Below, piece by piece: positions 15,822 to 29,014 of a stretch of 64,000 nt of DNA. The stretch's first letter is position 1. Each line of letters opens with the position of its first letter. Origin of the DNA: Hoeflea sp. (GTDB lineage Bacteria; Pseudomonadota; Alphaproteobacteria; Rhizobiales; Rhizobiaceae); NCBI RefSeq assembly GCF_965233445.1, contig NZ_OZ247491.1; one strand, given 5' to 3'. The position numbers were made by a program, and so were the translations under genes. Below the pieces are notes generated by a model that worked only from the letters and a program-made list of their open reading frames with translations, was not told the origin of the DNA and did no database searches.

Positions 15822-16274
15822 ATGGTCGCAAAGCCGTTCTGGCAAACCAAGACGCTCGACGAGATGACGACCGCGGAATGGGAGAGCCTGTGCGACGGCT
15901 GCGGCCGCTGCTGTCTGAACAAGCTCGAGGACTGGGACACCGGCGAAATCGCCTGGACCAGCATCGCCTGCCGGCTGCTCGACGGGCATACCTGCCGCTG
16001 CAAGGACTATGACAACCGCCAGGCCACCGTGCCCGACTGCATCGGCCTGACGCCCGCGCAGGTGGACACGATCACCTGGCTGCCGCCCACCTGCGGCTAT
16101 CGCCTGGTGCGCGAGGGGCGCGACCTCTACTGGTGGCACCACCTGGTCTCCGGCGATCCCGAAACCGTGCATCAGGCCGGCGTCTCCGTGCGCGGCCGGA
16201 CCGAAAGCGAGGAGGGGATCGATGTCGAGGATTTCGAGGACTACCTGGTGGACTGGCCGGGCGAGGAGGTCTGA
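15822..16274 (+). CDS. ycgN: YcgN family cysteine-cluster protein (UPF0260)
   Basis: [32 protein letters not shown]...CRCKDY. Confidence 0.85.
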
Positions 16275-16460
16275 CCCGCTCACAGGGGCACGGCGCTGCC
16301 GCCGGCCTTGATCCGGTGCGGGCCGCGGCCGGCCCGGAAAGGTGAGGGCAGGCACTCCGGGTTCATGAAAATCCGGCATTAGCATTTTTTTAACAAAGGC
16401 CGGGAACCGATCCCGCGTTCAGAAGTTAACGGGGCGTATTGCAAAACAGAGGACTGCCCC

Positions 16461-16622
16461 ATGCTTCAATGGATTTTGATACTGCTTATCGTCGCCGCGG
16501 TTGCCGGCCTTTTGGGCTTCGGCAAACTCTCCGGCCTGGCGCTGACTGGCGCGAAGCTGCTGATCGCCATCGTGCTGATCATCTTCCTGCTCGCCGTTCT
16601 CGGCATCGTGGCCATAGCGTAG
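16461..16622 (+). CDS. DUF1328 (UPF0391) small membrane protein, 53 aa
   Basis: Hand translation gives MLQWILILLIVAAVAGLLGFGKLSGLALTGAKLLIAIVLIIFLLAVLGIVAIA. It is below the ORF-track length cut-off. Confidence 0.7.
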   Translation: MLQWILILLIVAAVAGLLGFGKLSGLALTGAKLLIAIVLIIFLLAVLGIVAIA

Positions 16623-16682
16623 CGACACAACGAATTTTCAGACCTCCCCCATCCCCCCCGCGCGTCCCCCAACGCGTAACCT

Positions 16683-16714
16683 GCCGCCGAAGATTTTTCT
16701 TCGGCGGCTTTTTT
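16683..16714 (+). terminator. Rho-independent terminator
   Basis: GCCGCCGAAGA-TTTT-TCTTCGGCGGC followed by TTTTTT. It marks the left edge of the AT-richer island. Confidence 0.8.
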
Positions 16715-16816
16715 ATGTGGTGTGGGGATGGAGCGTGGGTAGAGCGGGTGGAATGTTCAAGGAACGCGCATTGTGGTATCTTTGACCAAAACCTGCGGAA
16801 ATCGACCGGAGCCGGC

Positions 16817-17065
16817 ATGCAACGCACATATTTCGTCAGGGCTGTGTGGGATGAAGAAGCGGAAGTGTTCGTTTCCGAAAGCGATATTATCGGCCTGCAC
16901 ATCGAAGCGGAAACCGTGGACGAATTCGAGGCCATGTTGCGAGATGTCGCGACCGATCTGGTGATCGCCAACCACATAAGCCCGGAACAACTGGAAACCA
17001 CGCCATTACGCGAGTTGATCCCGACAATCGTGTGGGAACGGCCCGGACCAGAAATGGCCGCCTGA
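16817..17065 (+). CDS. hicB: HicB-like antitoxin (DUF1902 type)
   Basis: YFVRAVWDEEAEVFVSESDIIGLHIEAETVDEFEAMLRDV is DUF1902/HicB-like. It lies immediately upstream of hicA with a 1-nt gap. Confidence 0.7.
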   Translation: MQRTYFVRAVWDEEAEVFVSESDIIGLHIEAETVDEFEAMLRDVATDLVIANHISPEQLETTPLRELIPTIVWERPGPEMAA

Positions 17066-17066
17066 A

Positions 17067-17264
17067 TTGGCGCCCGGCTTCTATCGCCAAGTTTGCGAGG
17101 AACTGACCCGGGCAGGTTTTGCGTATCTCTCCAATGCAAAGGGATCCCACGAGAAGTGGCGGAACCCCGAGACCGGTAGACTGGTACTTGTGCCGCGCAA
17201 TCTCAAAAGCCGCCACACGGCAAATGCGATCATGAAATCGGCGGGCGTGGAAAAGAAGCTCTGA
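17067..17264 (+). CDS. hicA: HicA family mRNA interferase toxin
   Basis: GFAYLSNAKGSHEKWRNPETGRLVLVPRNLKSRHTANAIMKSAGV is the HicA/YcfA signature. TTG start. Confidence 0.8.
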   Translation: MAPGFYRQVCEELTRAGFAYLSNAKGSHEKWRNPETGRLVLVPRNLKSRHTANAIMKSAGVEKKL

Positions 17265-17333
17265 TTGCTCGCCAAGTGGCCCCTCACAATTATGCCCAAA
17301 CCAGGATTCCCGCTTCAGTTGCCGAATAAGTCT

Positions 17334-17430
17334 CAAGGTTTCAGACCGTGAATACGCCGACATGCTGCTTGAAGCCATCTGTGGCAAGCGCCTGACCTAT
17401 CGGAGGATTGGTAAAGCCAATTGCGCCTAA
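17334..17430 (+). pseudogene. 3' remnant (about 32 codons) of an IS1595-family transposase gene
   Basis: It translates to ...ADMLLEAICGKRLTYRRIGKANCA*. This aligns at the nucleotide level with the 3' end of the intact copy at 24797-24896. Confidence 0.8.
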
Positions 17431-17670
17431 ACAAAAGGCGCGAAAGCTTCTCCACAAGCGCAAGAAACGCAACCTGTGATTCCCCGGGAATGCTCACGCA
17501 ACCCACTTGCATACTCCAGAACATTAGGAGAACGTGAAAGGCGACCGATTCGCACTCGGTCGCCTTCGTTCAAACAAGCCATGGGACGGCTCGCATGAAA
17601 CACAATCAGATTTTGAATCCTCCCGCGATTCTCGTCAAGCGTCCTGCGGCCAAATGCAGGAGACTTTAAG

Positions 17671-17961
17671 ATGGCCAAGCGCGCCCAAATCAAATGCATC
17701 AACAAAAACGACCGTTACAATCCATACGAACGGATCACGCACGTTGGAGGGCATGTCACTTCACAGTGGAAGATCACACTAGACGACGCAATCGCCAGGA
17801 TCGAGAACGGCGAATGGGAATTTTTTGTCGGCGGTGGTGGGCTTCTCACTCCAGAAGTGAATGTTATCGTCGCGGAGAGCCCGCATGGGAACAAGTACCT
17901 GAAGACTGAAGCGGATGATCGGGAGCCGAACAACCTTCTGAGTCTTCCCGAATGCCCATGA
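17671..17961 (+). CDS. DUF3892 domain protein
   Basis: NKNDRYNPYERITHVGG...WKITLDDAIARIENGEWEFFV...YLKTEADDREPNNLLSLPEC. AGGAG SD upstream. Confidence 0.75.
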   Translation: MAKRAQIKCINKNDRYNPYERITHVGGHVTSQWKITLDDAIARIENGEWEFFVGGGGLLTPEVNVIVAESPHGNKYLKTEADDREPNNLLSLPECP

Positions 17962-17994
17962 TCATCAAGTAGGACGCTCGAATGACTGTAGGCT

Positions 17995-18222
17995 CTAAAC
18001 CCATTCTAAAGCTTGTTGGGCGACGTACAGTTCGGCGTCGCGCCCTCGGCCGGAGACGAGCGTGGTACGAATGCGGTCAATCTCTCTTTGAATGAAACTC
18101 ATTGACTCTTCCTTCTTCGGCTTACCGTCCCTCCCGGTCTTCGGATCGGGAGGGGTTTTCAACAGGTGGCGCAAAACGTCGTCGCCCTTTTCCTGGTCTG
18201 TTTTCTTACTGGTGTCTGACAT
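17995..18222 (-). CDS. Small K/R-rich protein with LRHLLKTPPDPK motif ('TPP' family, U0 copy)
   Basis: The shared motif KGD(D/E)VLR(H/R)LLKTPPDP also occurs in the 25146-25316 copy. Related motifs are in 19764-19949 and 22629-22781. The start could be 18222 or 18279. Confidence 0.45.
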   Translation of the reverse strand: MSDTSKKTDQEKGDDVLRHLLKTPPDPKTGRDGKPKKEESMSFIQREIDRIRTTLVSGRGRDAELYVAQQALEWV

Positions 18223-18832
18223 GAGCAAAACTCTATCGGAGATTGACGGTATAAAGTTGGCATTGGGCGATATGTGCATTGCATGGGCGCACTTGGAGGA
18301 TGACTACTTCACGTTGGCGCTTTACCAATTTGAGTCATTCGACAGCGAAATCTCTCAAGCGCTTCAATCAGTATTAGACATCAGGGACATGGCGGCGCTT
18401 CAGAAAAATACTGCGCTAGCAAGGCCCAGAAACATCATCACTGATCACCTGATTTGCCTCGCTGACCAAATTGACAAAGAGCTTAGGCCTGTCAGAAACC
18501 GCTTTATCCACGACCCAATTTTTAAATTCAATGACTCCTACGAATTCGTAGACCGTACAGCCCGGATAAGAAAGCCTCAGGCGTTTAAGATCGAAATAAC
18601 TTTCCAGAATTGCTCGCCCGCGTCTAGCGAACGAATTGAAGCATTCACAAAGTGCATTCGCTGCGCACACGAATACGCGGGTGAGATTTTTGGCATTTTG
18701 GAATGCATGGATGACGCTGCAAAGTGGGGGCTGCCTCTTGGCGATCAAGAAGCGCGGGTACTCCGCGCAAACTTGGCCGAGGCCATCGCGGCGTACAAAG
18801 AAATGACCAAATCTCCAGAACCCAAAGAGTAA
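18221..18832 (+). CDS. HEPN-like protein (R-x4-H motif), U0 effector
   Basis: IAWAHLEDD helix and VRNRFIHDP (R-NRFI-H). It has the same architecture as the 25315-25932 protein. An alternative start at Met18 (18272) is possible. Confidence 0.5.
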   Translation: MSKTLSEIDGIKLALGDMCIAWAHLEDDYFTLALYQFESFDSEISQALQSVLDIRDMAALQKNTALARPRNIITDHLICLADQIDKELRPVRNRFIHDPIFKFNDSYEFVDRTARIRKPQAFKIEITFQNCSPASSERIEAFTKCIRCAHEYAGEIFGILECMDDAAKWGLPLGDQEARVLRANLAEAIAAYKEMTKSPEPKE

Positions 18833-18933
18833 TCGTCCGGCGCTACCCACCTCGACAATTCTCTCACGCCCGCCTCAATCATCTCAGGCGTAATCTCAAT
18901 CTCTTCTGTCCTTGTCTCGTCTGCGTCCGTCAT
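18745..18933 (-). CDS. Small protein with EIEITPEMIEAG motif (U0 copy)
   Basis: GGAGAG SD upstream of the ATG at 18933. The EIEITPEMIEAG motif is shared with 19047-19259 and 21295-21564. The 3' end overlaps the effector gene convergently. Confidence 0.5.
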   Translation of the reverse strand: MTDADETRTEEIEITPEMIEAGVRELSRWVAPDDYSLGSGDLVISLYAAMASAKFARSTRAS

Positions 18934-19008
18934 AGGAAACTCTCCGTTTCCTTGACGCACCTACCGGCCTTTCACGCAGGGGAATCATGCCTTTCTGATT
19001 ATGGTACG

Positions 19009-19050
19009 TAAAGTAGATAAATAGGAAAATAATCCTAATTATATACGTGA
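19009..19050. repeat. Junction palindrome P1 (degenerate copy)
   Basis: TAAAGTAGATAAATAGGA-AAATAA-TCCTAATTATATACGTGA, with 4 mismatches to the consensus palindrome. Confidence 0.85.
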
Positions 19051-19259
19051 CAAAAGTGACCGATTCGGATAAACCATCTGGCGACAGGCCGGCAAACGAG
19101 ATTGAAGTTACCCCGGAGATGATCGAGGCGGGGGCGTTGTCTATGTCTGGTTATGATCCTGATTTCGACACGCTAGAGTCGATATCCCTTGAAATCTTCC
19201 GAGCAATGATCGTTGCTAGTCCAAAGGGATTTGTGGTTGATGTTCATCTTCTAGATTGA
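19047..19259 (+). CDS. Small protein with EIEVTPEMIEAG motif (U1 copy)
   Basis: Family motif plus ...LEIFRAM. GTG start with no obvious SD, so the start is uncertain. Confidence 0.4.
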   Translation: MTKVTDSDKPSGDRPANEIEVTPEMIEAGALSMSGYDPDFDTLESISLEIFRAMIVASPKGFVVDVHLLD

Positions 19260-19707
19260 AAAGCTCCGGACGCAAGGTGCACATGATCCCAGTTCGGTAA
19301 AGCTGTGCGGTCGCAACAAAACGATCCCTCGGCGCGAGAAGGGCGCGCCCCTGAAATCTAGGTTCTTGATGTCTATCAAGGAGGGTCAAGTGTTTGCATG
19401 TGTCGGCCACTTCGTTGGTGGCAAAGCTTATTGGTTTTCGCGAATGCGCGAATGTATTTCGGATGTGACGTATCAAGCTCAAGTCGTGCCTAGCCTGCTT
19501 ACCTATGAGGCCTAATGCATAGGCTAAATTGATCTTCGCGGAAAAGGTAGAAATAGGGCTATCTCCTATGAATATTTCACCTATTTCGGATTGAGTCAGC
19601 GGGACCATTTTTGACAAAATGAACTCTTTTAGATCATCTTCCAGGTGGGTCGATACGATGATTGCGGCGGCACGATCATCTGAGCGATCCAAATGCGACG
19701 GCTGCAT
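19216..19707 (-). CDS. HEPN-like protein (MtlR/DUF4145-like, IRNTFAH motif), U1 effector
   Basis: STHLEDDLKEFI..., STFSAKINLAYALGLIGKQARHDLSLIRHIRNTFAHS (R-x4-H). The ORF is open up to a GTG at 19848, so the start is uncertain. Confidence 0.5.
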   Translation of the reverse strand: MQPSHLDRSDDRAAAIIVSTHLEDDLKEFILSKMVPLTQSEIGEIFIGDSPISTFSAKINLAYALGLIGKQARHDLSLIRHIRNTFAHSRKPISFATNEVADTCKHLTLLDRHQEPRFQGRALLAPRDRFVATAQLYRTGIMCTLRPELFNLEDEHQPQIPLD

Positions 19708-19763
19708 AAGAGCATCAGCTACACTAGGCCGCTCTCGGCTAAGCCGCTTTAAGTTGGAGAGAT

Positions 19764-19949
19764 ATGTTGGATCACGAGACAAAGACGGCCCCCAATGAAA
19801 CGGAAAAGCGCCGCGATGACGCCTTGCGCCGCGCACTATCGACGCCACCGAAACCTAAACGGGAATCAAGCAAGGCGAAAGACGAGTCCAGTGACACCAA
19901 AAGAGCTAAACGACAGGATAAGGGCGTTCACCCATCGCGCGGGAACTGA
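19764..19949 (+). CDS. Small K/R-rich protein with ALRRALSTPPKPK motif ('TPP' family, U1 copy)
   Basis: Motif family member, divergent from the U1 effector. Confidence 0.4.
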   Translation: MLDHETKTAPNETEKRRDDALRRALSTPPKPKRESSKAKDESSDTKRAKRQDKGVHPSRGN

Positions 19950-20158
19950 GATTTCTCAAGAAGCCGGATCATGGCTTCGAGGGACTGACCATAATCACCC
20001 TGACGTTCTTCGTCAGACAGATCAGCGGCAACGTCCAACAGGTAGTCAATCAACTTCTCACGATTGATGACGCCCTGGTCAATTAGGGCCGCAATAACGG
20101 CCATGTTTGCGAAAAGCAGGCCGTATACTGGGCCCATATCTCTAAGGGGTTCCCTCAT
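19928..20158 (-). CDS. Hypothetical 76-aa protein (variable slot of U1)
   Basis: AAGGAAG SD 7 nt upstream of the ATG at 20158. No recognisable domain. Confidence 0.45.
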   Translation of the reverse strand: MREPLRDMGPVYGLLFANMAVIAALIDQGVINREKLIDYLLDVAADLSDEERQGDYGQSLEAMIRLLEKSQFPRDG

Positions 20159-20205
20159 CGCGACTCTTCCTTTTTCGAATCGCTAGGAGCTTACGCGCTT
20201 TCTGC

Positions 20206-21195
20206 TTAGGCGTAACTGGCTTGACCAGTTTGATTATAGGTCAACCGCTTGCCAGATGCGCCACGGATCGCATCTTCGGCCCGTTCACGGTCTGAAATTT
20301 TGAGCGCGGTACGGCGGTTATAGCGGAAATCGAATTCTGCCAGATAGCGGTGCAGGTGAGCCTCGCCGCAATGCTGATAGATACCGATCATGCCGCGCTT
20401 GAAGATGGAGAACACGTTCTCAATCGTGTTTGAGTGCACAACGGCATCGCCCTCACGGCGGGCATATTCCTTCGCGGAATGCCTGACAGTGCGGTGTGTA
20501 GCGTATTCCTCACCGGTCGCTGTGTAGAGGCGTGACTCGTCGGTGTAGAGGTTGGACTTGCGGTCAACGTTGCGGACCAGAACATCGCGGAGAATGTCCT
20601 TGGTGGCGTTCTGCACGAGGAACATGCGGGACTTGCCGCCACGCTCGACCAGACCGACAACGATACGCTTGTCCGCACCACCCGCCTTGCCCGACTTCGT
20701 AGGCTTGGCAATGCGGCCACGGGAAAGCTGACGAGGAGTTTCACGCTTACCGATGTAGGTTTCATCGGCTTCAACGGTCTTGCCTTCACCGCCAAGAGGA
20801 CCAGACGAGGCAACGTCCTCTTTCATGGCTTCGCGGATACGGTGAGCCATGAACCAAGCAGTCTTGTAGGTGACGCCAAGCATACGGTGTAGCTGGTGAG
20901 CGGACATGCCCTTCTTGGATGCTGCGAACAGGTGAAAAGCGAATACCCACTTCGACAGCGGAACCTTTGACCGCTCCATGACGGACCCCACGGTGACGGT
21001 GAACTGACCGCCACACTCATTGCAGTAGTAGAGGCCCTTACGGTGCGTCTGCTTCTTGCCTTCGACTTTCGCAATCTTGGACGCGTCAATGTTGCCGCAA
21101 TGCGGGCAGTTCGGGCCGTGGGGCCAACGAATAGCCTCAAGGTGCTCACGGGCTGCGTCTTCGTCGTGAAAGATAGGATCGTTGAAAGCGGTCAT
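20206..21195 (-). CDS. IS1595-family (ISXO2-like) DDE transposase with N-terminal zinc ribbon
   Basis: CPHCGN...YYCNECGGQF zinc ribbon. DDE-type residues lie in VEADETYIG, LYTDESRLY and HSNTIENVFS. AAGGAG SD upstream of the ATG at 21195. Confidence 0.85.
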   Translation of the reverse strand: MTAFNDPIFHDEDAAREHLEAIRWPHGPNCPHCGNIDASKIAKVEGKKQTHRKGLYYCNECGGQFTVTVGSVMERSKVPLSKWVFAFHLFAASKKGMSAHQLHRMLGVTYKTAWFMAHRIREAMKEDVASSGPLGGEGKTVEADETYIGKRETPRQLSRGRIAKPTKSGKAGGADKRIVVGLVERGGKSRMFLVQNATKDILRDVLVRNVDRKSNLYTDESRLYTATGEEYATHRTVRHSAKEYARREGDAVVHSNTIENVFSIFKRGMIGIYQHCGEAHLHRYLAEFDFRYNRRTALKISDRERAEDAIRGASGKRLTYNQTGQASYA

Positions 21196-21239
21196 TGGTT
21201 TAACTCCTTGACCTCTTTTCGCAAATGGCCCTACTTTTG

Positions 21240-21281
21240 TCAAGTATATAATTAGGAAAATAATCCTAATTATATACTTGA
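21240..21281. repeat. Junction palindrome P2 (perfect 42 bp)
   Basis: TCAAGTATATAATTAGGA-AAATAA-TCCTAATTATATACTTGA. Confidence 0.95.
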
Positions 21282-21294
21282 GAAAGCAAAAATC

Positions 21295-21564
21295 GTGACG
21301 TATGATTCGGGCCGACAGGCCGGCACGGAAAAGACCGAGGAAATTGAGATTACGCCGGAGATGATTCAGGCGGGGCTTTCGGCGTGGTCGGAGTGCGAAG
21401 CTATGCGCGTTGAACGGAGCGCCACTTTGAAGCTGATCTTTTGTAGGATGTGGCTTTTAATGGAGAGGAGCCCCGTTCTTTCTGATGACGAACCAGAAGG
21501 CTTTGAGGAATATGAGGCTAAAATCATTGCGGCTTGGAAAGCCGATGGCTACATCAAGGTCTGA
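21295..21564 (+). CDS. Small protein with EIEITPEMIQAG motif (U2 copy)
   Basis: Family motif. GTG start. The 3' end overlaps the 358-aa gene by 11 nt, convergently. Confidence 0.4.
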   Translation: MTYDSGRQAGTEKTEEIEITPEMIQAGLSAWSECEAMRVERSATLKLIFCRMWLLMERSPVLSDDEPEGFEEYEAKIIAAWKADGYIKV

Positions 21565-22630
21565 ATGTTTTTTCAAAGTCTGCGATAATTGCTGCGCTCA
21601 TACGGAGTAGCTGAGTGAGGGTTTTTACCACGTCGGAGCCGCCAAATGGGCGAAATCCGGTAGGGAATTTCGCTGCCGTTCCACCGGCTAATCGGCTCAA
21701 TTTATGCATCGGCTCCGAGCCTTTCCGGGCATAAAGTCTTGTACCCTCTTGAATAGGTATTATGACTTGAGGACCTAAGTATCCAATGCTTGGGGTGGGA
21801 GTGGATTGATCCAATTCTAGATAAGATTCAATAGATTTTACGACATCCAACTCATGATGGGAAACTACATAAGTAGGCAGGATGATTTTATGTTTGTCCG
21901 TAATATCAAGATCATGAAGGCCTCTAAGCTCCAAATTTCCATCGACCGAAACAGGGCGTAATTCCCTGATTTTTTGTACCATTTTTTTATTTAGTTTTTT
22001 GCAGTGGTCGTCAGCGAGAATCTTTTCCAGATGAGACATATCTTTCGCAAACGGCATTTTTAACTGTTTTGAGCTTTGGTTAGAAAGCCGCGCCAAATCT
22101 CCTATCAATATATCTAATGAGCTACGCAGATTGTGAGCTATGTCGCCGATTATTAAAGGGATCAACCCTGGTGCGGGCCCTCGAAAAGTTGCCCGCCACT
22201 CTATGGTATTGTCATCATAAGGGCCCACTTCAACTGGAATTATGGTGAGCCGTTCCCCGTATCGCCAGATCTCCTCAACAAGTTGCTCCAACAAGAGGTG
22301 AGCCCTCATAAGCTTCATATTCGGACCGACAAACGGCTTTACATTGCCACTGGAGTCAGTCTCAGGCGTCGGCATCCAAGAATGAATGAACATTTCCGGC
22401 GGGTTGCCCAATTCAGCAAACCGTGCCCTTCTAGACAGCTCTGATATTTCCCAAGATGCAAACGATAGCTGGTCGCTATCAAATTCAAAATATGACATCG
22501 TCTTGGTCTTAGATAGAAGTCCGAAGTAAACTTTGAGACCTTCTTCAGTATGGGCTACACAGTACCGGTGAAACTTTTCGACCGGTATCGCTTTTGAGAA
22601 TTCATCTAGTGGGTTAGATTCTGATTCCAT
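21554..22630 (-). CDS. Hypothetical 358-aa protein, U2 effector slot (no confident domain)
   Basis: Long ORF in the most AT-rich stretch of the window. Motifs IGDIAHNLRSSLDIL and LHDLDITDKHKII were noted but not assigned to a family. Confidence 0.6.
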   Translation of the reverse strand: MESESNPLDEFSKAIPVEKFHRYCVAHTEEGLKVYFGLLSKTKTMSYFEFDSDQLSFASWEISELSRRARFAELGNPPEMFIHSWMPTPETDSSGNVKPFVGPNMKLMRAHLLLEQLVEEIWRYGERLTIIPVEVGPYDDNTIEWRATFRGPAPGLIPLIIGDIAHNLRSSLDILIGDLARLSNQSSKQLKMPFAKDMSHLEKILADDHCKKLNKKMVQKIRELRPVSVDGNLELRGLHDLDITDKHKIILPTYVVSHHELDVVKSIESYLELDQSTPTPSIGYLGPQVIIPIQEGTRLYARKGSEPMHKLSRLAGGTAAKFPTGFRPFGGSDVVKTLTQLLRMSAAIIADFEKTFRP

Positions 22631-22781
22631 GCACAACACCGACGATCAAAAGTTCAATGAAACCCTCAAGCGGATGCTAAAGACGCCGCCGAAGCCGCAC
22701 GATAGCGACAACGGGAAGTCGAGTCACACGGAAAAAGCGAAGCCAACTAAAGCTTCGCCTTCCGTTTCCTCAAAGCGATGA
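22629..22781 (+). CDS. Small K/R-rich protein with LKRMLKTPPKPH motif ('TPP' family, U2 copy), 50 aa
   Basis: Hand translation gives MHNTDDQKFNETLKRMLKTPPKPHDSDNGKSSHTEKAKPTKASPSVSSKR. Its ATG shares CATG with the 358-aa gene start. Confidence 0.4.
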   Translation: MHNTDDQKFNETLKRMLKTPPKPHDSDNGKSSHTEKAKPTKASPSVSSKR

Positions 22782-22798
22782 CTCGTCTGATTTTTTGC

Positions 22799-23779
22799 TT
22801 AGGCGTAATTGGCTTCACCAATCCGCCGATAAGTCAGACGTTTGCCGTTGATGCGTGAAAGCAAATCGTCGTGTCGTTCGGTATCTGAGACCTTGAGCGC
22901 GGTACGACGGTTATAACGGAAATCGAACTCTGCCAGATAGCGGTGCAAGTGGGCTTCGCCGCAGTGCTGGTAAACGCCAACCATGCCGCGCTTGAAGATG
23001 GAGAACACGTTCTCAATTGTGTTTGAGTGCACGACTGCATCGCCCTCACGGCGGGCATATTCCTTCGCGGAATGCCTGATAGTGCGGTGAGTAGCGTATT
23101 CCTCACCGGTCGTGGTGTAGAGGCGCGACTCGTCGGTGTAGAGGTTGGACTTGCGGTCAACGTTGCGGACCAGAACATCGCGGAGAATGTCCTTGGTGGC
23201 GTTCTGCACGAGGAACATGCGGGACTTGCCGCCACGCTCCACAAGGCCCACGACGATACGCTTATCAGCACCACCGGCCTTGCCCGACTTGGTAGGCTTG
23301 GCAATGCGGCCACGGGAAAGTTGGCGAGGGGTTTCGCGCTTACCGATGTAGGTTTCATCGGCTTCAACGGTTTTGCCTTCGCCACCAAGAGGACCAGACG
23401 AGGCAACGTCCTCTTTCATTGCTTCGCGGATACGGTGAGCCATAAACCAAGCGGTCTTGTAGGTGACGCCAAGCATACGGTGCAGCTGGTGAGCGGACAT
23501 GCCCTTCTTGGATGAAGTCATCAAGAAAGTGGCGAGAAGCCATTTATTCAGCGCGATCTTAGAGCGTTCAAACACGGTGCCGACGGTAACGGAGAACTGC
23601 TTACGGCATTCCATGCAGTTGTAGAGGCCGGGGCGGTGAGCCTTGCCCTTCATCTCTGTGATGCGGGTCTGGTCGCAGTTGCCGCAATGAGGGCAAACAG
23701 GACCATTCGGCCACTGCATAGCCTCAAGATGTTCGCGGGCTGCGTCTTTGTCGGTGAAGATTTTGTCGTCAAGTTTCAT
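22799..23779 (-). CDS. IS1595-family (ISXO2-like) DDE transposase with N-terminal zinc ribbon
   Basis: Same domain motifs as 20206-21195. The central segment of about 125 aa is identical at the protein level. SD ACGGAG upstream. Confidence 0.85.
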   Translation of the reverse strand: MKLDDKIFTDKDAAREHLEAMQWPNGPVCPHCGNCDQTRITEMKGKAHRPGLYNCMECRKQFSVTVGTVFERSKIALNKWLLATFLMTSSKKGMSAHQLHRMLGVTYKTAWFMAHRIREAMKEDVASSGPLGGEGKTVEADETYIGKRETPRQLSRGRIAKPTKSGKAGGADKRIVVGLVERGGKSRMFLVQNATKDILRDVLVRNVDRKSNLYTDESRLYTTTGEEYATHRTIRHSAKEYARREGDAVVHSNTIENVFSIFKRGMVGVYQHCGEAHLHRYLAEFDFRYNRRTALKVSDTERHDDLLSRINGKRLTYRRIGEANYA

Positions 23780-23825
23780 AGGCTTCGCTCCGTTGTCCTT
23801 TTATAGGAAATCGGATCGTGCTTTG

Positions 23826-23867
23826 TCAAGTATATAATTAGGAAAATAATCCTAATTATATACTTGA
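23826..23867. repeat. Junction palindrome P3 (perfect 42 bp, 44 bp with the flanking G/C)
   Basis: Same sequence as P2. It lies between two divergent transposase genes. Confidence 0.95.
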
Positions 23868-23912
23868 CGTACCAGATCGGATTTGGCATAAAGGACTCAA
23901 GGAGTTAAGCCA

Positions 23913-24896
23913 ATGTTCGACCTGACCAACGAGATTTACCACGACGCCGACAAGGCCCGCGAGCATCTGGAAGCTATCCAGTGGCCGCACGGTCCTATCT
24001 GCCCGCATTGTGGCAACTGCGATCAGACGCGCATTACCAAGCTTGAAGGCGCTTCAACCCGTCCCGGCGTGTACAAGTGCAATGAATGCCGCAAGCCCTT
24101 CTCGGTCACTGTCGGCACTGTGTTTGAGCGCTCCAAGATCGGCCTGCACAAATGGGTTCTGGCAACGCACCTTCTGGCTTCATCCAAGAAGGGCATGTCC
24201 GCACACCAGCTGCACCGTATGCTTGGCGTCACCTACAAGACCGCTTGGTTTATGGCTCACCGTATCCGCGAAGCCATGAAAGAGGACGTTGCCTCGTCTG
24301 GTCCTCTTGGCGGCGAAGGCAAAACCGTTGAAGCCGACGAAACCTACATCGGAAAGCGCGAAACCCCTCGTCAGCTTTCCCGTGGCCGCATTGCCAAGCC
24401 TACGAAGTCGGGCAAGGCGGGCGGTGCGGACAAGCGTATCGTTGTCGGTCTGGTCGAGCGTGGCGGCAAGTCCCGCATGTTCCTCGTGCAGAACGCCACC
24501 AAGGACATTCTCCGCGATGTTCTGGTCCGCAACGCTGACCGCAATTCCAACCTCTACACCGACGAGTCGCGCCTCTACACCTCAGTTGGTGAGGAATACG
24601 CTACGCACCGCACTGTGAAGCATTCCCGCAAGGAATATGCCCGCCGTGAGGGCGATGCCGTGATTCACTCCAATACGATTGAAGGCGTCTTCTCAATCTT
24701 CAAGCGTGGCATGATCGGTATCTATCAGCATTGCGGCGAAGCTCACCTTCACCGCTACCTTGCTGAATTTGATTTCCGCTATAACCGCCGCTCGGCTCTC
24801 AAGGTTTCCGACCGTGAGCGCGCCGACATGCTGCTTGAAGCCATTCGCGGCAAGCGCCTGACCTATCGGCGGATTGGTGAAGCCAGTTACGCCTAA
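23913..24896 (+). CDS. IS1595-family (ISXO2-like) DDE transposase with N-terminal zinc ribbon
   Basis: CPHCGN...YKCNECRKPF, then VEADETYIG, LYTDESRLY and HSNTIEGVFS. AAGGAG SD upstream. Confidence 0.85.
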   Translation: MFDLTNEIYHDADKAREHLEAIQWPHGPICPHCGNCDQTRITKLEGASTRPGVYKCNECRKPFSVTVGTVFERSKIGLHKWVLATHLLASSKKGMSAHQLHRMLGVTYKTAWFMAHRIREAMKEDVASSGPLGGEGKTVEADETYIGKRETPRQLSRGRIAKPTKSGKAGGADKRIVVGLVERGGKSRMFLVQNATKDILRDVLVRNADRNSNLYTDESRLYTSVGEEYATHRTVKHSRKEYARREGDAVIHSNTIEGVFSIFKRGMIGIYQHCGEAHLHRYLAEFDFRYNRRSALKVSDRERADMLLEAIRGKRLTYRRIGEASYA

Positions 24897-25028
24897 GCAG
24901 AAGGCGCGAGCTATTCTCAGAAAACGCAAAAAGCGCTAGCTTATTTGCGGTTGTTGATTCGCCTCAGCCACACCTCTCAGGGTTATGCCTTAAGCCGGGC
25001 CACTGCCCGAGAAAGGAGGTGAGAGCGA

Positions 25029-25139
25029 ATGTCCAAGGCAACCAAAATCGGTCGAAGCGCGGTTACGGGGCGCTTTACAACGGTGAAAACCGCAGTGAAG
25101 CATCCCCGTACCCACATCGTGGAGACCCGTAAAAAGTAA
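25029..25139 (+). CDS. 36-aa protein MSKATKIGRSAVTGRFTTVKTAVKHPRTHIVETRKK (variable slot of U3)
   Basis: Very strong SD GAAAGGAGG 8 nt upstream. The S-A-x-TGRF...HP-x-T pattern resembles a widespread small-protein family (from memory). It is below the ORF-track cut-off. Confidence 0.5.
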   Translation: MSKATKIGRSAVTGRFTTVKTAVKHPRTHIVETRKK

Positions 25140-25145
25140 GCCAGC

Positions 25146-25316
25146 CTAGCTGTCTTCTTCCGGGCGGTGTTTCTGTGCAGGAGTGCCGCCCGGTTTCGTT
25201 TTCTGACCTGAATCGCTTGTGCGAGACTTGTGCCCCGGATCAGGCGGGGTTTTCAACAGGCGGCGCAATACCTCGTCGCCCTTTTCCTGGTCTTTGCTCA
25301 TGGATGATTCTGACAT
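25146..25316 (-). CDS. Small K/R-rich protein with VLRRLLKTPPDPG motif ('TPP' family, U3 copy), 56 aa
   Basis: Hand translation gives MSESSMSKDQEKGDEVLRRLLKTPPDPGHKSRTSDSGQKTKPGGTPAQKHRPEEDS. An in-frame TGA two codons upstream fixes the ORF's 5' limit. Confidence 0.45.
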   Translation of the reverse strand: MSESSMSKDQEKGDEVLRRLLKTPPDPGHKSRTSDSGQKTKPGGTPAQKHRPEEDS

Positions 25317-25932
25317 GCCTCAGCCCTTGTCTAAAGTCTGTCCCAATTGCTCGTACAGCATCGGCGCGACTGGTGCACCCGCGTTGCCCAGCCGCCCAGA
25401 ATTGGCAGCCCTTGCAATGGAGTCGATAGCCTCATGGTCGCACGTCGAAGCTGAATTGCTTAGAGTTTATATCCAGCTAATGGGAGGGAAAGATGACCGA
25501 GCGACCGTCGCTTACCTATCCCTTGAAACCCAAGGCGCAAAAACAAACGTCATATCTGCTGTTGCCAAATCCTTCTTGGGGAAAGACGAACTCTCGGTTC
25601 TTAACGCAATTCTGCGATTAGCAAAGACGAACCAAAAGCATAGGGACAAATTAGCGCATTGGATTTGGGGAATATGCCCGGATCTGCCAGACGCCATCCT
25701 TTTGGCAAACCCGAAAAACATGAAATCCGGTTACCCCGACCCCTCAGAGGTGTTCGTTTACAAAGCGAAAGATTTCACCCAAATCATTGAAGCAAACAAA
25801 CGGCTTGCCTCACTAGCAGGGGGACTCATACTCGCGCTTTTTCCCCCTTCTGATTGGCCACACAAGCTCTCACCACTTGAGTTGCTATGTAAGGCACCTG
25901 AGCTTCGAGAAATCCTAAGTCATCAGGCTTAG
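25315..25932 (+). CDS. HEPN-like protein (R-x4-H motif), U3 effector
   Basis: IASWSHVEAE helix and HRDKLAHWIWG (R-DKLA-H). An alternative start at Met35 (25417) is possible. Confidence 0.5.
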   Translation: MPQPLSKVCPNCSYSIGATGAPALPSRPELAALAMESIASWSHVEAELLRVYIQLMGGKDDRATVAYLSLETQGAKTNVISAVAKSFLGKDELSVLNAILRLAKTNQKHRDKLAHWIWGICPDLPDAILLANPKNMKSGYPDPSEVFVYKAKDFTQIIEANKRLASLAGGLILALFPPSDWPHKLSPLELLCKAPELREILSHQA

Positions 25933-26014
25933 CAAATTCGATCTCTCGACGGAGAATCGACTCAACGGCCTTAACCAGACCGCCAAACCCGTCTTTCTCG
26001 TCTGTCGTCGTCAT
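25826..26014 (-). CDS. Small protein in the EIEIT-gene position of U3 (motif not conserved)
   Basis: The 5' UTR, SD and first codons are nearly identical to the 18745-18933 copy. The body has diverged. The 3' end overlaps the effector gene by 107 nt. Confidence 0.35.
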   Translation of the reverse strand: MTTTDEKDGFGGLVKAVESILRREIEFAKPDDLGFLEAQVPYIATQVVRACVANQKGEKARV

Positions 26015-26089
26015 AGGAAACTCTCCGTTTCCTTGACGCACCTACCGGCCTGTCACGCCGCCGAATCATGCCTTTTCGATTCTGGTACG

Positions 26090-26120
26090 TCAAGTATATA
26101 ATTAGGAAAATAATCCTTGA
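26090..26120. repeat. Junction palindrome P4 (left arm + spacer + truncated right arm), right edge of the island
   Basis: TCAAGTATATAATTAGGA-AAATAA-TCC then TTGACGG. The right arm looks like the consensus with 11 internal nt missing. Confidence 0.85.
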
Positions 26121-26501
26121 CGGCGTCACGGTCCTTTGGTAGGGTTATGTCATCGTCACAGAGTTGCGCCGGTGGGGCGGCGGTTCAGCCGTCCGTTTGA
26201 CGGTTCGGGGCTTGGGCTTCGAACCGGAAGGATCGGTGGAATTGATCCGGGGTGCCCGGTCTTGCGGGTTGATCCGTGGCAGGGTCCGCGAGAGACGAAA
26301 ACATGATGGAAATGCGCCAAGCGCCTCTGGTTCGTCCAGGGCGCTTTTTTGTTGGCCGAAAGCCGGCGCGTCCGGTGCGGCGACTGGGTGTTGAACCGCG
26401 TCGGATGGCCGCGCACTGGCTGCCGGTTATCGCTTGCCCGTGACCGGCGCGGCTGGGGCCGAGCGTCCGGCCGGACGGGCCAATTGAAACGAGGATTGAC
26501 C

Positions 26502-27218
26502 ATGACCGAAAGCCTCAATGCGGCCTCGCACGGCGGGGTGTGTCTGGAAGCTTCATTTCCGGTGCCCGGCGGCGGGATGGTTCCGGCGCAAGAGGCCGTG
26601 CTGATCGACCGGCTGATCGATCTGCTTCTGGCGGTCGAGCCGTTCGAGGTGAAGCAGGGCGATACCGGGCGGTGTGCCGAGGGAGAGGGCGGCGAGGATG
26701 CGCCGTCCGGATGTGCGGCGGACACAGCCCCGCCGGAGATGGATGCGCCAGGGCCAGCGACCGGCAGCAACGACACGAGCGCAACCGGCGACATCATGGC
26801 GAAGCCTTCGGCCGAAAGCACGCGGGCGATGCTGGGCCGGATGCGCGCCGTGCTCGACCGTGAGGCGGCGCGGCTGGGCGAGGACGGGCTGGAAGGCAAG
26901 GCAGCGGTCGACCAGGTGGCGCTGATCGCCCGCACGCTCGAGAAGATCGACCAGATGGAACGGCTGATTGCCGAGGACTCGCACCGGGCCTCCGGCGAGC
27001 GCCTGAGCGGCGAGGAGCGCGAACAGATGCGCCGGACCGTGCGGCAGCTCATCCTGTCAGCCGCCGAACGGATGGTGGCGGAACGCGCCGCCCAAGTTGC
27101 GCCCGATGGCGCGGCGGCTGGCGATGGCGATGCGGCGGAAGGCGGAGCAGGTGAGGTGATGGAGTCTTCCGACCCGGCAGACGCCGGGCCGCTGGATCCC
27201 GGATCTTGTCCGGGATGA
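26502..27218 (+). CDS. Hypothetical acidic protein at the head of the GTA cluster (position of RcGTA g1)
   Basis: First ORF of the cluster on the correct strand. No motif recognised. Function is inferred from position only. Confidence 0.35.
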   Translation: MTESLNAASHGGVCLEASFPVPGGGMVPAQEAVLIDRLIDLLLAVEPFEVKQGDTGRCAEGEGGEDAPSGCAADTAPPEMDAPGPATGSNDTSATGDIMAKPSAESTRAMLGRMRAVLDREAARLGEDGLEGKAAVDQVALIARTLEKIDQMERLIAEDSHRASGERLSGEEREQMRRTVRQLILSAAERMVAERAAQVAPDGAAAGDGDAAEGGAGEVMESSDPADAGPLDPGSCPG

Positions 27219-27553
27219 CGGAGGCAGGATGGCCGTGAGCTCACCACGGACCCGTGCGGTGACGCGGCGGGCAGGGTGCTTTCGGCACGGCTGGGTTTCT
27301 TGAACGGATAGCGAAAGGGTGCGGCATGAGCCTGCGGTCGATGACGATGGCGCTCAGGGGCACTGTCTGGGCAGACCCTGTGCCCGGGTTCTGCGTTCCG
27401 GTCCGAAACCTGCTGGCGTGCGGGCAGGTTCTTGCGCCAAGGATTGCGGAGCATGTGCCTGTCGGCGCCACGGAAAGAGGCAGCGGGGATACGGCATCGC
27501 TGTCCTGCCCGAATGCAATGAAAAACAAGGGCTTCGGCAGCTGTCATGATTCA

Positions 27554-28870
27554 ATGTCGCAGTCCGGCGGGCCGGGCGCTGCGGCAGGCGTGCCGGATCT
27601 GCTTGCCCACCATGTCGGGCGGTTCGACGACCGGGCGCTTTTTGCCAGTGCCCATGACTGGCAGCTCCTGGCGCGGCCCGAGCAATTGCCGCCCGAAGGC
27701 GACTGGCGCACCTGGCTGCTGATGGGCGGGCGCGGCTCCGGCAAGACCCGGGCCGGAGCCGAGTGGGTGCATGCGATTGCCACCGGCGATCTGCCGGGGC
27801 TCGGTCCGGACGGGCGCATCGCGCTGGTGGCCGAAACCTTCGGCGATGCGCGCGAGGTGATGATCGACAATGTGTCGGGCATTCTCGGCGTGGCGCGCAC
27901 CGAACGGCCCGCCTTCGAGGCGACGCGGCGCAGGCTGGTCTGGCCCTCGGGCGCGGTGGCGCAGATGTTCTCCTCGGAAGATCCCGAGAGCCTGCGCGGG
28001 CCGCAATTCTCGCTCGCCTGGTGCGACGAGCTGGGCAAGTGGCGCCATGCCCGCGAGACCTGGGACATGCTGCAATTCGGCCTGAGGCTCGGCTCGTCGC
28101 CGCGCCAGATGGTGACGACCACCCCGCGGGCGACGCCGCTGATGCTGTCGCTGGTGAAGGACGCCACCACGCGGATGACGCGGATCAGGACCGCCGACAA
28201 TGCGGCGAACCTGGCGGGCGGCTTCATCGAGACGGTTCGCGCACGCTATGGCGGCACGCGGCTCGGACGGCAGGAGCTCGACGGCGAACTGATTGCCGAC
28301 CGCGAGGACGGGCTGTGGCGGCGCGACCAGATCGAGGCGCTGACGGTGCGGGGTCACGGCCCGCTGTCGCGCATCGTGGTGGCGGTCGACCCGCCGGCCT
28401 CGGGGGAGGCGAAGCACTCCTGCTGCGGCATCGTGGCGGTCGGGCTTGACGGCGATGGCCGCGCGGTGGTGCTGGCGGACGGGTCGGTGGAGGGCGCGAG
28501 CCCCTCGGGATGGGCGGAAGCCACGGCACGGCTCTACCGGCGCTTCGACGCCGATTGCGTGGTGGCCGAGATCAACCAGGGCGGCGACATGGTGACGAGC
28601 GTGCTCAGGACGGTGGAGCCGACGCTGCCGGTCAGGACCGTGCGCGCGACGCGTGGCAAGTGGCTGCGCGCCGAGCCGGTGGCCGCGCTCTACGAGCAGG
28701 GCCGGGTGGTCCATGCCGGGCACTTCGCGGCGCTGGAGGACCAGATGTGCGATTTCGGGCCGGACGGTCTCAGTTCCGGGCGGTCTCCGGACCGGCTCGA
28801 CGCGCTGGTCTGGGCGCTGACCGAATTGCTGCTGGCACGCAGGAGCGAGCCGCAGGTGCGGCATTTGTGA
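27554..28870 (+). CDS. GTA/phage terminase large subunit
   Basis: Walker A LLMGGRGSGKTRAGAEW. Size and position match RcGTA g2. Start chosen at the ATG at 27554. Confidence 0.85.
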   Translation: MSQSGGPGAAAGVPDLLAHHVGRFDDRALFASAHDWQLLARPEQLPPEGDWRTWLLMGGRGSGKTRAGAEWVHAIATGDLPGLGPDGRIALVAETFGDAREVMIDNVSGILGVARTERPAFEATRRRLVWPSGAVAQMFSSEDPESLRGPQFSLAWCDELGKWRHARETWDMLQFGLRLGSSPRQMVTTTPRATPLMLSLVKDATTRMTRIRTADNAANLAGGFIETVRARYGGTRLGRQELDGELIADREDGLWRRDQIEALTVRGHGPLSRIVVAVDPPASGEAKHSCCGIVAVGLDGDGRAVVLADGSVEGASPSGWAEATARLYRRFDADCVVAEINQGGDMVTSVLRTVEPTLPVRTVRATRGKWLRAEPVAALYEQGRVVHAGHFAALEDQMCDFGPDGLSSGRSPDRLDALVWALTELLLARRSEPQVRHL

Positions 28871-28956
28871 ACGCGACCCAAGGGGGGCGTCATGCCGGAC
28901 TTGAGAGAGACAAGCGAAGCGACGTCGTAGCTCCGGCGTGACGGAGAGGATTTTCA

Positions 28957-28986: not shown

Positions 28987-29014
28987 ATTCCGGACCTTTG
29001 AAGGGATGTGAGAC

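Follow-up and report, generated by a model that had tools for sequence, protein, structure and literature searches.

Within the window, that is, the whole stretch of 64,000 nucleotides of Hoeflea sp. DNA that was analysed, positions 17305-26114 hold an array of insertion sequence (IS) units, of which U1 is decayed and U2-U4 are intact (2.2-2.6 kb). The units are stacked head-to-head and tail-to-tail, and each encodes a transposase and a divergent gene with a HEPN motif besides small ORFs. The features are as follows:

17305..19025, + strand: U1, decayed, 5'-truncated unit; its repeats D2, D4 and D5 match U4 at 78-89%
17305-17475: U1 transposase 3' remnant
17671-17961, + strand: U1 DUF3892 ORF (Pfam)
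17995-18279, - strand: U1 TPP-motif small ORF
18092-18832, + strand: U1 HEPN-motif ORF, RNRFIH (RN...H motif)
18745-18960, - strand: U1 small ORF
19009-19025: U1 right inverted repeat (IR), decayed, 3 mismatches
19026..19033, + strand: junction U1/U2, 8-bp target duplication copy AAAATAAT
19034..21256, - strand: U2, intact IS1595-family transporter IS, 2223 bp, with an IR pair (CCTAATTATATAC(G/T)TGACAAAAGT at both ends) and a perfect 8-bp duplication
20206-21195/21243, - strand: U2 transposase (Pfam PF12762 + PF12760)
19764-19949, + strand: U2 TPP-motif ORF
19216-19848, - strand: U2 MtlR/HEPN-like ORF (MtlR match)
19047-19259, + strand: U2 small EIEVTPEMIEAG ORF
21257..21264, + strand: junction U2/U3, duplication copy AAAATAAT, centre of the palindrome 21240-21281
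21265..23842, - strand: U3, intact unit, 2578 bp, IRs ...CTTGA(G/C)AAAGCA
22799-23779, - strand: U3 transposase
22629-22781, + strand: U3 TPP-motif ORF
21554-22639, - strand: U3 cargo ORF, 361 aa
21295-21564, + strand: U3 small EIEITPEMIQAG ORF
23843..23850, + strand: junction U3/U4, duplication copy AAAATAAT, centre of the palindrome 23826-23867
23851..26106, + strand: U4, intact unit, 2256 bp, both 25-nt IRs identical (CCTAATTATATACTTGACGTACCAG)
23913-24896, + strand: U4 transposase (NCBIfam NF033547)
25146-25316, - strand: U4 TPP-motif ORF
25219-25932, + strand: U4 HEPN-motif ORF, RDKLAH
25826-26041, - strand: U4 small ORF
26107..26114, + strand: rightmost duplication copy AAAATAAT, the original target core

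U1 is truncated beside hicAB; the left end of the array is gone, and the full chain of duplications is unreadable here.

All three transposases in the window revealed the Pfam domains DDE_Tnp_IS1595 (E about 1e-35) and Zn_ribbon_IS1595, the NCBIfam match to the IS1595 family transposase reached 194 bits against a cutoff of 75, and the closest named relatives are annotated as "IS1595 family transposase", one of them as "ISSpo8". The IRs are about 25 bp long, one pair per unit; their first 17-18 nt (CCTAATTATATACTTGAC) are common to the family, while the inner sequence differs from unit to unit and is the same at both ends of one unit. Judged by their substitutions, with a dS of about 0.57 and a dN/dS of 0.18-0.23, the three transposases are separate genes under constraint. 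A local origin, in which one element was tandemly amplified by duplication or homologous recombination and then inverted, the spacer being merely copied, would fit the central region of the transposase, whose protein sequence is the same in the three copies, and the non-transposase ends of U1 and U4, which are 89% identical. We consider this very unlikely in view of the synonymous divergence given above, cargo genes that vary between units and are unrelated in length and sequence, the matched extended IR pair that each unit has of its own, the three junction types in the window (S-S, T-S and T-T), and the orthologous site in other genomes, where one, two or more different units are found.

The initial annotation had described a perfect palindrome TCAAGTATATAATTAGGA-AAATAA-TCCTAATTATATACTTGA at 21240-21281 and 23826-23867, the second copy reaching 44 bp with G23825 and C23868, and a degenerate copy at 19009-19050. 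All of these were confirmed, the degenerate copy having three mismatches in its left arm and one in its right arm, and AAATAA does read on the + strand at all four junctions. With up to three mismatches allowed, the 18-nt arm is found seven times in the 64 kb as compared with none in 100 shuffles, and the folding energies of the two perfect palindromes as single-stranded DNA are -16.9 kcal/mol (z = -11) and -16.2 kcal/mol (z = -9). The division into 18-nt arms and a 6-bp AAATAA spacer, however, had to be replaced by one into IS ends that start with CCT, the repeat unit being an IS end of 17 nt or more, and the 8-bp AAAATAAT; the arms seemed to measure 18 nt and the spacer 6 nt because the outer A and T of the 8-bp spacer are complementary by chance. 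At 26090-26120 there is, as described, nothing but the left arm, AAATAA and TCC, but TCC (26114-26116) is not the stub of a right arm; its T is the final base of the duplicated 8 bp, and its CC is native and belongs to CCTTGAC. The proposal that terminal repeats of transposase-bearing units abut to form the palindromes was borne out. Each palindrome can be read as the right IR of one unit, the AAAATAAT duplication and the left IR of the next; they are the touching ends of different IS1595-family neighbours and no elements in their own right, and their symmetry is an automatic consequence of the IRs being inverted.

The length of the duplication follows from related loci: in the window and 80 genome loci, 57 units have perfect 8-bp direct repeats on their flanks, with many sequences represented among them, so that the 6-bp duplication proposed earlier is 8 bp in reality. 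The outer two bases are part of the duplication and not of the IR, as seen in CTTGTTTT, AATATTTA, CGGTGAGG and CAAAATTT, and locus L025 (GAG|CGGTGAGG|CTG) revealed that CCT belongs to the IS. Nor is AAATAA an invariant recognition sequence, since other genomes have different 8-mers at their solo units and arrays, for example AATTTAGT, AAAAAAGT, AATAATGT, AATAAAGT and CGGTGAGG. Solo units, which are the majority of the relatives, are flanked by unrelated duplications of a length other than 6 bp, and the claim in its literal form fails. Its core held: a spacer of constant sequence and orientation is the mark of repeated insertion into one target beside an existing end, and arrays in other loci repeat an 8-mer of their own (AAAAAAGT in L003, AATAATGT in L016, AATAAAGT in L027), with L001, L008 and L015 repeating AAAATAAT. 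In a few units the flanks do not match (L008 on its left side, L012 and L029), which implies later rearrangements.

The same geometry could be expected if the palindromes were core sites of tyrosine or serine recombination, with inverted binding arms, an asymmetric crossover spacer of 6-8 bp and direct orientation throughout, and if the units were modules like those of pdif or integron cassettes. Inverted arms and a non-palindromic spacer that never changes its orientation are indeed present, as are small modules of genes from one site to the next; yet the units neither contain nor adjoin a recombinase gene, a DDE transposase is found in each of them, the unrelated perfect 8-bp direct repeats of the 57 units are a transposition footprint, and IS-free targets consist of the 8-bp core and short TAGG/CC flanks without the arms. 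This explanation is largely refuted, and we regard it as scarcely credible.

Our comparison supports a strong preference of this IS subgroup for a palindromic target, which in the aligned sites reads ATAGG|AAWWWWTT|CCTAT. Among 45 reconstructed sites, G(-1) is kept in 44, G(-2) and A(-3) in 37 each and C(+1) in 43, the independent events being fewer than the loci because some sites are orthologous across related genomes (the hot spot at the gene transfer agent (GTA) cluster and a second one in Mesorhizobium). The consensus is kept in 68 half-sites away from the GTA promoter, and 63 half-sites without a relic IS end display C (60/63), C (51/63), T (47/63) and A (44/63). In the window AGG-W8-CCT occurs five times versus zero expected, four of the five being the junctions. 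The preference is not absolute, as seen in L025, L042, L067 and GG-tipped relatives in other sequences, and by inspection TAGG-W8-CC is a poor match to the E. coli IHF consensus. The IS tips (CCTA...) resemble the flanks of the target, and the transposase itself may read these flanks as its own tips.

To the right of the array lies the native flank:

26115..26160, + strand: promoter-like CC-TTGACG-N17-TAGGGT...CATCGTC, conserved across genomes and metagenomes

Its spacer holds a palindrome of the CCGTNACGG type, and the sequence is conserved in 12 or more genome loci as well as in 67 distinct contigs from metagenomes. It lies upstream of an RcGTA-like cluster (identified by Pfam; terminase at 27326). 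The target in the window is native, a conserved motif that adjoins the -35 box of the putative RcGTA-like promoter on its upstream side. (A/T)TAGG-W8-C precedes CTTGAC in all 75 metagenome matches to the GTA promoter; an IS end is absent in 44 of its 67 distinct metagenome copies, and in 58 of 70 copies the 600 nt upstream lack any similarity to an IS. The window gene at 15774-16274 has an ortholog in L095 that ends 34 nt before CCTTGAC, leaving no space for an IS relic. Insertion orientation at the hot spot is random, and the host promoter probably works on after insertions.

Each IS end also carries an inward promoter-like sequence, as previously suggested, with TTGAC in 56 of 56 transposase ends and the A at position 2 of the -10 box (position 38) at a fixed 17-nt spacing in 48 of 56. 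The rhizobial consensus CTTGAC-N17-CTATAT of the initial annotation is that published for S. meliloti sigma-70 (PMC2873474). For U4 we predict:

23864..23892, + strand: inward promoter of the transposase, from sequence, at positions conserved across 56 units (-35 TTGACG 23864-23869, 17-nt spacer, -10 CATAAA 23887-23892)
26065..26093, - strand: inward promoter of the non-transposase end, TTGACG-17-CATGAT

The former is followed by the Shine-Dalgarno sequence AAGGAG and the ATG at 23913, the latter by a subterminal motif, GTGACAGGCCGG, that is conserved. Conservation among the relatives supports an inward promoter in either end; these promoters presumably fire, though some units have weak -10 hexamers (GAAAAG at the transposase end of U2).

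These promoters bear on the idea that the junction palindrome itself is under selection for a regulatory role. It would serve as a symmetric operator or as a promoter for both directions, recognised by the N-terminus of the transposase, by a small protein encoded in the units or by a host factor, and stacking would be maintained for co-regulation and not as a neutral by-product of how targets are chosen. Two divergent -35 boxes 30 bp apart over an AT-rich core, outward TTGTCA-16-AATAAT matches across IR and duplication in consensus scans, GANTC methylation motifs enriched in the IS ends and small conserved ORFs adjoining them would suit such a role. Against this, relatives are mostly solo and do not need the palindrome, its symmetry comes with the IRs, and the promoter consensus scan found 10 matches, barely above shuffled sequence (6.1 +/- 2.5). 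We regard selection for regulation as unlikely, albeit compatible with serial insertion as an extra layer.

Very probably, then, the palindromes are the ends of stacked transporter IS of the IS1595 type, serially inserted at one regenerated 8-bp target. The proposed course builds on demonstrated points, namely family identity, IR pairing, 8-bp duplications, target consensus, empty sites and arrays with other spacers. An element would insert into the 18-bp ATAGG|AAWWWWTT|CCTAT in either orientation, with staggered cuts 8 bp apart. With tips of the sequence CCTA... and a duplicated 8-bp core, one target would turn into two that are close to the consensus (native flank|core|IS tip), and TAGG-W8-CC would be rebuilt beside the GTA promoter. 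Subsequent insertions would hit exactly the same 8 bp, which would explain the identical, same-orientation spacers at all junctions; the array would exist because each insertion rebuilds a short palindromic target. As an inward promoter of the sigma-70 type would have its -35 box in each IR, one serving the transposase and the other the small-ORF end, a junction would place two divergent promoters back to back.

The element is of a known kind. [quoted passage not shown] With ISNwi1-like tIS (Siguier, Gagnevin & Chandler 2009, Res Microbiol 160:232), our units share a DDE transposase with an N-terminal zinc ribbon in a single ORF, 8-bp target duplications, short terminal IRs with ...ATTAT... 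and extra non-transposition genes inside the IRs. They differ in their CC(T) instead of GG tips, their strong palindromic target preference with stacks recurring at one chromosomal hot spot, and their cargo, mostly a fast-diverging HEPN-motif gene between two small antisense ORFs. GG is the consensus tip of both ISNwi1 and Merlin. In the searchable literature, we found no description of the palindromic target specificity, single-site recurrent stacks, CC(T) tips or HEPN cargo layout.

The precedent of IS30, IS911 and IS256 drawn earlier stands for the abutted IRs and their promoter elements, and the preferred palindromic site like the own ends is a further likeness, but it is an analogy only. 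In those systems the junctions join two ends of one element (dimer or circle) over spacers of 2-6 bp and act as reactive intermediates of transposition, and IS30 targets a palindromic site resembling or abutting its own ends ((IS30)2 IR-IR; Olasz et al.; Chandler lab). Here, in contrast, the transposase family is another one, the junctions join diverged elements, the spacer is an 8-bp duplication, and the junctions are evolutionarily stable, one member having decayed in place.

Tandem accretion at regenerated attachment sites is known for Tn7-like elements at attTn7-type sites (PMC11014353) and for casposons and integrated elements in archaea (PMC4046053, PMC6563490). As in those arrays, different family members were serially inserted at one conserved chromosomal site by a conserved gene with the duplicated target between them, but here by a one-gene DDE element, in both orientations and without a target-selector protein or Cas1. 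The GTA promoter of Caulobacter crescentus has a conserved palindrome in the spacer from -35 to -10, and its long leader holds a terminator-like hairpin (PMC11150451). The promoter in the window, with our target just ahead of the -35 box of the head-tail cluster, resembles it in both features, although its sequences cannot be aligned with the Caulobacter elements.

Symmetric target consensus sequences are also those of IS231A (GGG-N5-CCC) and IS10/Tn10 (NGCTNAGCN). G/C clamps around a short core at the staggered cuts and use in either orientation are common to these and to our target; in our case, however, the duplication does not include the clamps, which lie outside it, the AT-rich core measures 8 bp, and the clamp has the sequence of the IS tip, which is why the target is regenerated.

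The initial annotation described two perfect 42-bp palindromes (21240-21281 and 23826-23867, the latter lengthening to 44 bp), a degenerate copy (19009-19050) and a half copy (26090-26120), and reading of the sequence agreed with it to the base, with AAATAA on the + strand in all four junctions. At up to three mismatches the 18-nt arm has seven occurrences and is found nowhere else in the 64-kb window, and 100 shuffles yielded none. The palindrome parses as IR(...ATTAGG) + AAAATAAT + IR(CCTAAT...), that is, as terminal inverted repeats (IRs) of adjoining units on either side of an 8-bp target-site duplication. Real but ordinary, it needs no more than the usual architecture of transposons, with an IR on each side of a duplication: it is a by-product, made where IRs of stacked transporter ISs of the IS1595 family meet at their 8-bp duplication. 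Annotating it as an independent regulatory or recombination element is unwarranted. The sole Rfam match in 15500-28000, a plant miRNA on the palindrome, was spurious (30 bits versus a gathering score of 100 bits), and no known RNA family was found by Rfam in this region, including the 190-nt leader after the promoter-like sequence to the right of the array (the GTA promoter).

The ORF map and the repeat map of the window revealed four units, U1 to U4, each with 1.0-2.5 kb of non-transposase ORFs, while a transposase gene of 326-345 codons is present in three of them. The two ends of a unit are called T (transposase end) and S (small-ORF end), and the orientations (U1 >, U2 <, U3 <, U4 >) therefore give the junctions S-S, T-S and T-T.

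Features of the stacked units
17305-17475: transposase remnant of U1 (last ~170 nt); U1 lies left of 19025 and its IR is decayed
20272-20571, 22865-23164 and 24059-24826: central region of the transposase genes
Each unit, in addition to the transposase: small ORF carrying L-x-T-P-P-x-P
Transposase strand: ORF of 210-361 codons, one with an MtlR/HEPN-like match, several with Rx4H
S end, each unit: small ORF
18092-18832, 19216-19848 and 25219-25932: HEPN-motif cargo (passenger) ORFs; also cargo ORFs at the related loci L001-L079

All three transposase copies matched DDE_Tnp_IS1595 in Pfam (PF12762; E 2.5e-36 to 4.6e-35), together with an N-terminal Zn_ribbon_IS1595 (PF12760; E 1e-11 to 1e-13) within roughly the first 90 residues, and the NCBIfam model NF033547 of the IS1595 family scored 194 bits against a cutoff of 75. 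An N-terminal zinc ribbon is absent only in the IS1016 group of this family, whose usual duplication is 8 bp (PMC8101967), and passenger-carrying 'transporter ISs' were first defined in it, according to Siguier 2009 as cited in PMC3129680 and PMC11891212. The units display the catalytic domain, the zinc ribbon, the 8-bp duplication and IRs bounding the transposase, and they carry passenger genes inside the IRs. With the ISNwi1-type end consensus, ggnnatTAT, the unit ends CCTAATTAT share the ATTAT core, but their tips are CC instead of GG; ends of more distant relatives (L055-L078) have GGnnATTATATAC. No relevant paper on ISSpo8 was found in the searchable literature. A megablast search of the plasmid collection gave two weak partial matches only, and the elements are not known plasmid cargo.

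Inner parts of the extended IRs are unit-specific (...GACGTACC, ...GACAAAAG or ...GA(C/G)AAAGC) and matched at the two ends of a unit, the 25-nt ends of one window unit showing 0-2 differences, while IR positions 4-21 are near-invariant among 56 units. Since each unit has its own extended IR pair, the units are discrete transposons. Judged from their divergence (dS ~0.57, dN/dS 0.18-0.23), the three transposase genes are old copies evolving separately under purifying selection. The explanation of the array as local amplification of one element fails on this divergence, on the different cargo and on the unit-specific IRs. Over the central ~115 transposase codons the proteins are identical, with 11-20 synonymous and no non-synonymous differences, and local dS is 0.14-0.28 versus 0.57 gene-wide, which points to very strong constraint, to gene conversion among the stacked units, or to a combination of the two.

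A scan with the transposase alignment against one genome per species provided 80 related loci in Hoeflea, Chelativorans, Mesorhizobium, Aurantimonas, Devosia and many other alphaproteobacteria, belonging to an IS1595 branch with more than 8000 homologues at E <= 1e-30. Almost every transposase is bracketed by an IR pair 2.0-3.6 kb apart, and perfect 8-bp direct repeats, which vary by genome (AATTTAGT, AAAAAAGT, AATTTTTT, ACAAAATT, CGGTGAGG, CCTTTGGG and others), flank 57 units, U2, U3 and U4 included. In the duplications CTTGTTTT, AATATTTA and CAAAATTT the first base is not complementary to the last, so the outer A...T of the window 8-mer is part of the duplication rather than of the IR; CCT can be assigned to the IS tip because the GC-rich flank of L025 reads GAG|CGGTGAGG|CTG. 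A 14-bp duplication (AGG-N8-CCT) with shorter IRs was rejected, as the three bases outside the 8-mer are unrepeated in L025, L033, L035, L037 and L042. Further stacks were found at L001, L003, L008, L015, L016 and L027, and within a stack one 8-mer occupies all junctions, differing between stacks (AAAATAAT, AAAAAAGT, AATAATGT, AATAAAGT); this is the outcome of serial insertion into a single target. The core of the earlier proposal, repeated insertion beside an existing end, was thus right, while its 6-bp AAATAA target has to be replaced by the 8-bp duplication, and with such variation between stacks AAATAA cannot be recognised universally.

Two other explanations treat the palindrome as a functional site. 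A tyrosine-recombinase core site (dif/lox/attC-like) would go with a recombinase and with solo modules free of duplications; the ORF map of units and window and the Pfam scan contained no recombinase ORF, and the solo units do lie between 8-bp duplications, whose sequence varies, so that the recombination-site explanation fails. A junction selected as an operator keeps a small probability but is unnecessary, given that most relatives are solo.

What is new is a near site-specific, self-regenerating palindromic target together with a conserved hot spot at the GTA promoter. Empty sites, reconstructed by deleting units and one duplication copy, gave the consensus (T/A)ATAGG|AAWWWWTT|CCTAT for 45 C-tipped elements, with G(-1) in 44/45, G(-2) and A(-3) each in 37/45, C(+1) in 43/45 and C(+2) in 38/45. 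The consensus is kept in 34 sites away from the GTA promoter (68 half-sites), and 63 half-sites with flanks unlike any IS end keep it as well, so it is no artefact of relic ends. Decayed IS ends as the origin of the ATAGG flanks were therefore rejected for most sites, there being also no room for one at L095, though relic ends do apply at window U1, the far flank of L001, L004, L081/L112, L110 and L128. These elements thus show a palindromic target preference, and we infer that the transposase itself reads the target flanks. The IS tip CCTA(A)T resembles the target half-site CCTA(T), and after insertion each IS-flank junction again reads AGG|core|CCT. Units inserted at any one site point either way at random, which fits the symmetry of the target. 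AGG-W8-CCT (W8 being an 8-bp A/T core) occurs five times in the window, with none expected, and four of these are the junctions.

Unoccupied target-like site
585-598: fifth AGG-W8-CCT, GTGAGG AAAAAAAT CCTCTAT, unoccupied

This site sits between a MucR/Ros-like ORF (16-327, recognised by eye from the translation) and an ORF at 726-1346. The searchable literature yielded no description of IS1595 target specificity or palindromic targets. A large alphaproteobacterial IS1595 branch behaves as near site-specific for an 18-bp palindrome regenerated by its own tips, which provides a simple testable rule for the formation of IS 'trains' and a candidate safe harbour for insertions into genomes of the Rhizobiales type.

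The right flank of the array, CCTTGACGGCGTCACGG...TAGGGT...CATCGTC, is found again beside the elements of at least 12 genomes, which belong to several families.

Features right of the array
26115-26350: strongly conserved promoter-like sequence and leader, TAGG-W8-CC-TTGAC-(CCGTNACGG palindrome)-TAGGGT-CATCGTC
26325-26341: terminator-like hairpin, ~190 nt past the promoter-like sequence
27326-41743: RcGTA-like cluster, terminase to GTA_TIM tail protein

The downstream head-tail cluster is complete (terminase, portal, S78 protease, HK97 capsid, GTA-gp10, DUF2460, GTA_TIM and others). Scanning metagenomes with the GTA promoter alone gave 75 contigs (67 distinct), and (A/T)TAGG-W8-C stands directly upstream of CTTGAC in all 75. 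Among the 67, an intact IS end is found at this place in 6, a sequence differing from such an end by 3-8 mismatches in ~17 (several clear relics) and neither in 44; by BLAST, 58/70 show no IS similarity within 600 nt upstream. At L095 the ortholog of the window gene 15774-16274 ends 34 nt before CCTTGAC, reading ...TGA-N20-GATAGG AAAAAATT CCTTGAC. From this layout it follows that the TAGG-W8-CC motif is native and that 16275-26114 (small membrane ORF, hicAB, U1-U4) is accreted DNA. The duplication and the IS tip restore TAGG-W8-CC, and the conserved part upstream of the promoter is thereby rebuilt after insertion. A hot spot 8 bp from the GTA -35 box thus flags a short conserved motif upstream of this promoter. 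The 53-codon membrane ORF (16461-16622) and hicAB belong to the 9.8 kb accreted from the ycgN-like gene to the GTA promoter, and the hicB-like (DUF1902)/hicA pair (16817-17264) lies exactly where the transposase end of U1 is deleted. A second recurrent hot spot was seen in Mesorhizobium spp. (L021-L024, L046), where units abut the promoter-like CCTAT..ATTGCCC/TTGACC-N17-TACTAT with an 8-bp AT-rich core just upstream of the -35 box. In the Caulobacter GTA promoter an IHF element lies upstream of the -35 box, a GafZ palindrome separates the -35 and -10 boxes, and antitermination operates via a long leader (PMC11150451); the CCGTNACGG spacer palindrome and the hairpin at 26325-26341 are reminiscent of this layout. 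That TAGG-W8-CC is an IHF site, by the same analogy, is speculative, the match to WATCAANNNNTTR being poor by inspection.

Most of the variable cargo belongs to one hyper-divergent family marked by RN...H, a HEPN-like Rx4H motif present in 25 of the 57 longest cargo ORFs versus 1.4% of shuffles. Pfam gave only single scattered matches for these 57 (MtlR, SocA_Panacea, DUF4145 and DDE_3, the last from a nested IS), the MtlR match (Pfam/NCBIfam, 1.4e-7) being confined to the U2 cargo, and PADLOC found nothing on cargo or small ORFs. The HEPN-motif ORF is bordered by two small ORFs on the opposite strand, with L-x-T-P-P-x-P and E-I-E-I-T-P-E-M-I-E-A-G motifs, and the three may form a module for addiction, of toxin-antitoxin type, or for defence. 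These elements build the islands of HEPN-motif genes next to the GTA cluster.

Comparison of the unit ends supports the inward promoters predicted earlier. When 56 units are aligned from their tips inwards, every T end has TTGAC at positions 14-18, and A at position 38 (48/56), with A-rich positions 40-41, stands out of an otherwise variable region as the predicted -10 box at 17-nt spacing, in agreement with the published rhizobial consensus CTTGAC-N17-CTATAT (PMC2873474). A conserved AAGGAG and an ATG at about position 63 follow. The S end has the same -35 box and, in most units, TA at positions 37-38. Transcription is predicted to start about 7 nt past the -10 boxes, near 23899 (+) for the U4 transposase, 26058 (-) for the S end of U4, 21313 (+) for U3 and 26152 (+) for the GTA promoter. 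A generic promoter scan of the region gave just marginally more than the shuffled expectation.

Subterminal motifs in the window
19083-19093, 21315-21325 and 26047-26057 (- strand): GACAGGCCGG(C)
19062, 21304, 26067 and 26082 (- strand), 23894: examples of GANTC in unit ends

At the S end of 46/56 related units, and never at the T end, the invariant motif GACAGGCCGG(C) is found 50-55 nt from the tip. Downstream small ORFs read it in different frames, so it is conserved as DNA or RNA; it could serve as an operator where transcription starts, or else as a second site for binding. The motif methylated by CcrM, GANTC, was observed 22-50 nt from the tip in 41/56 S ends and 17/56 T ends (~8% expected), overlapping the spacer and -10 box of the predicted promoters. 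Dam-GATC sites confer replication-coupled control on IS10 and IS50, and by analogy GANTC may do so here.

A joint reading, to which we give a low probability, likens this IS1595 subgroup to integrons: it would be a self-propagating system of accretion that runs on an ordinary DDE transposase. The elements would home to the 18-bp palindrome as a conserved host promoter-upstream element, best exemplified next to the GTA -35 box, perhaps via the same protein-DNA contacts that organise their own ends, made either by the transposase as it recognises tips or by an architectural protein of the host common to both. Insertion would rebuild the element, with the host promoter surviving and two landing pads in place of one, and cassettes that bring their own promoters and differ in their HEPN-type toxin or defence gene would accumulate beside GTA genes, with CcrM methylation possibly tying expression from the ends to replication.

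The analogy to IS30-type junctions in the initial annotation does not fit the array. Junctions of IS30, IS911 and IS256 join two ends of the same element, as a circle or a tandem dimer, whereas the adjoining units of the window differ in cargo, transposase (dS ~0.57) and inner IR. In those systems the spacer is 2-6 bp, derives from donor flanks and is distinct from the duplication chain; in the window array, by contrast, it is exactly the 8-bp duplication, also at the outer edge beside native DNA.
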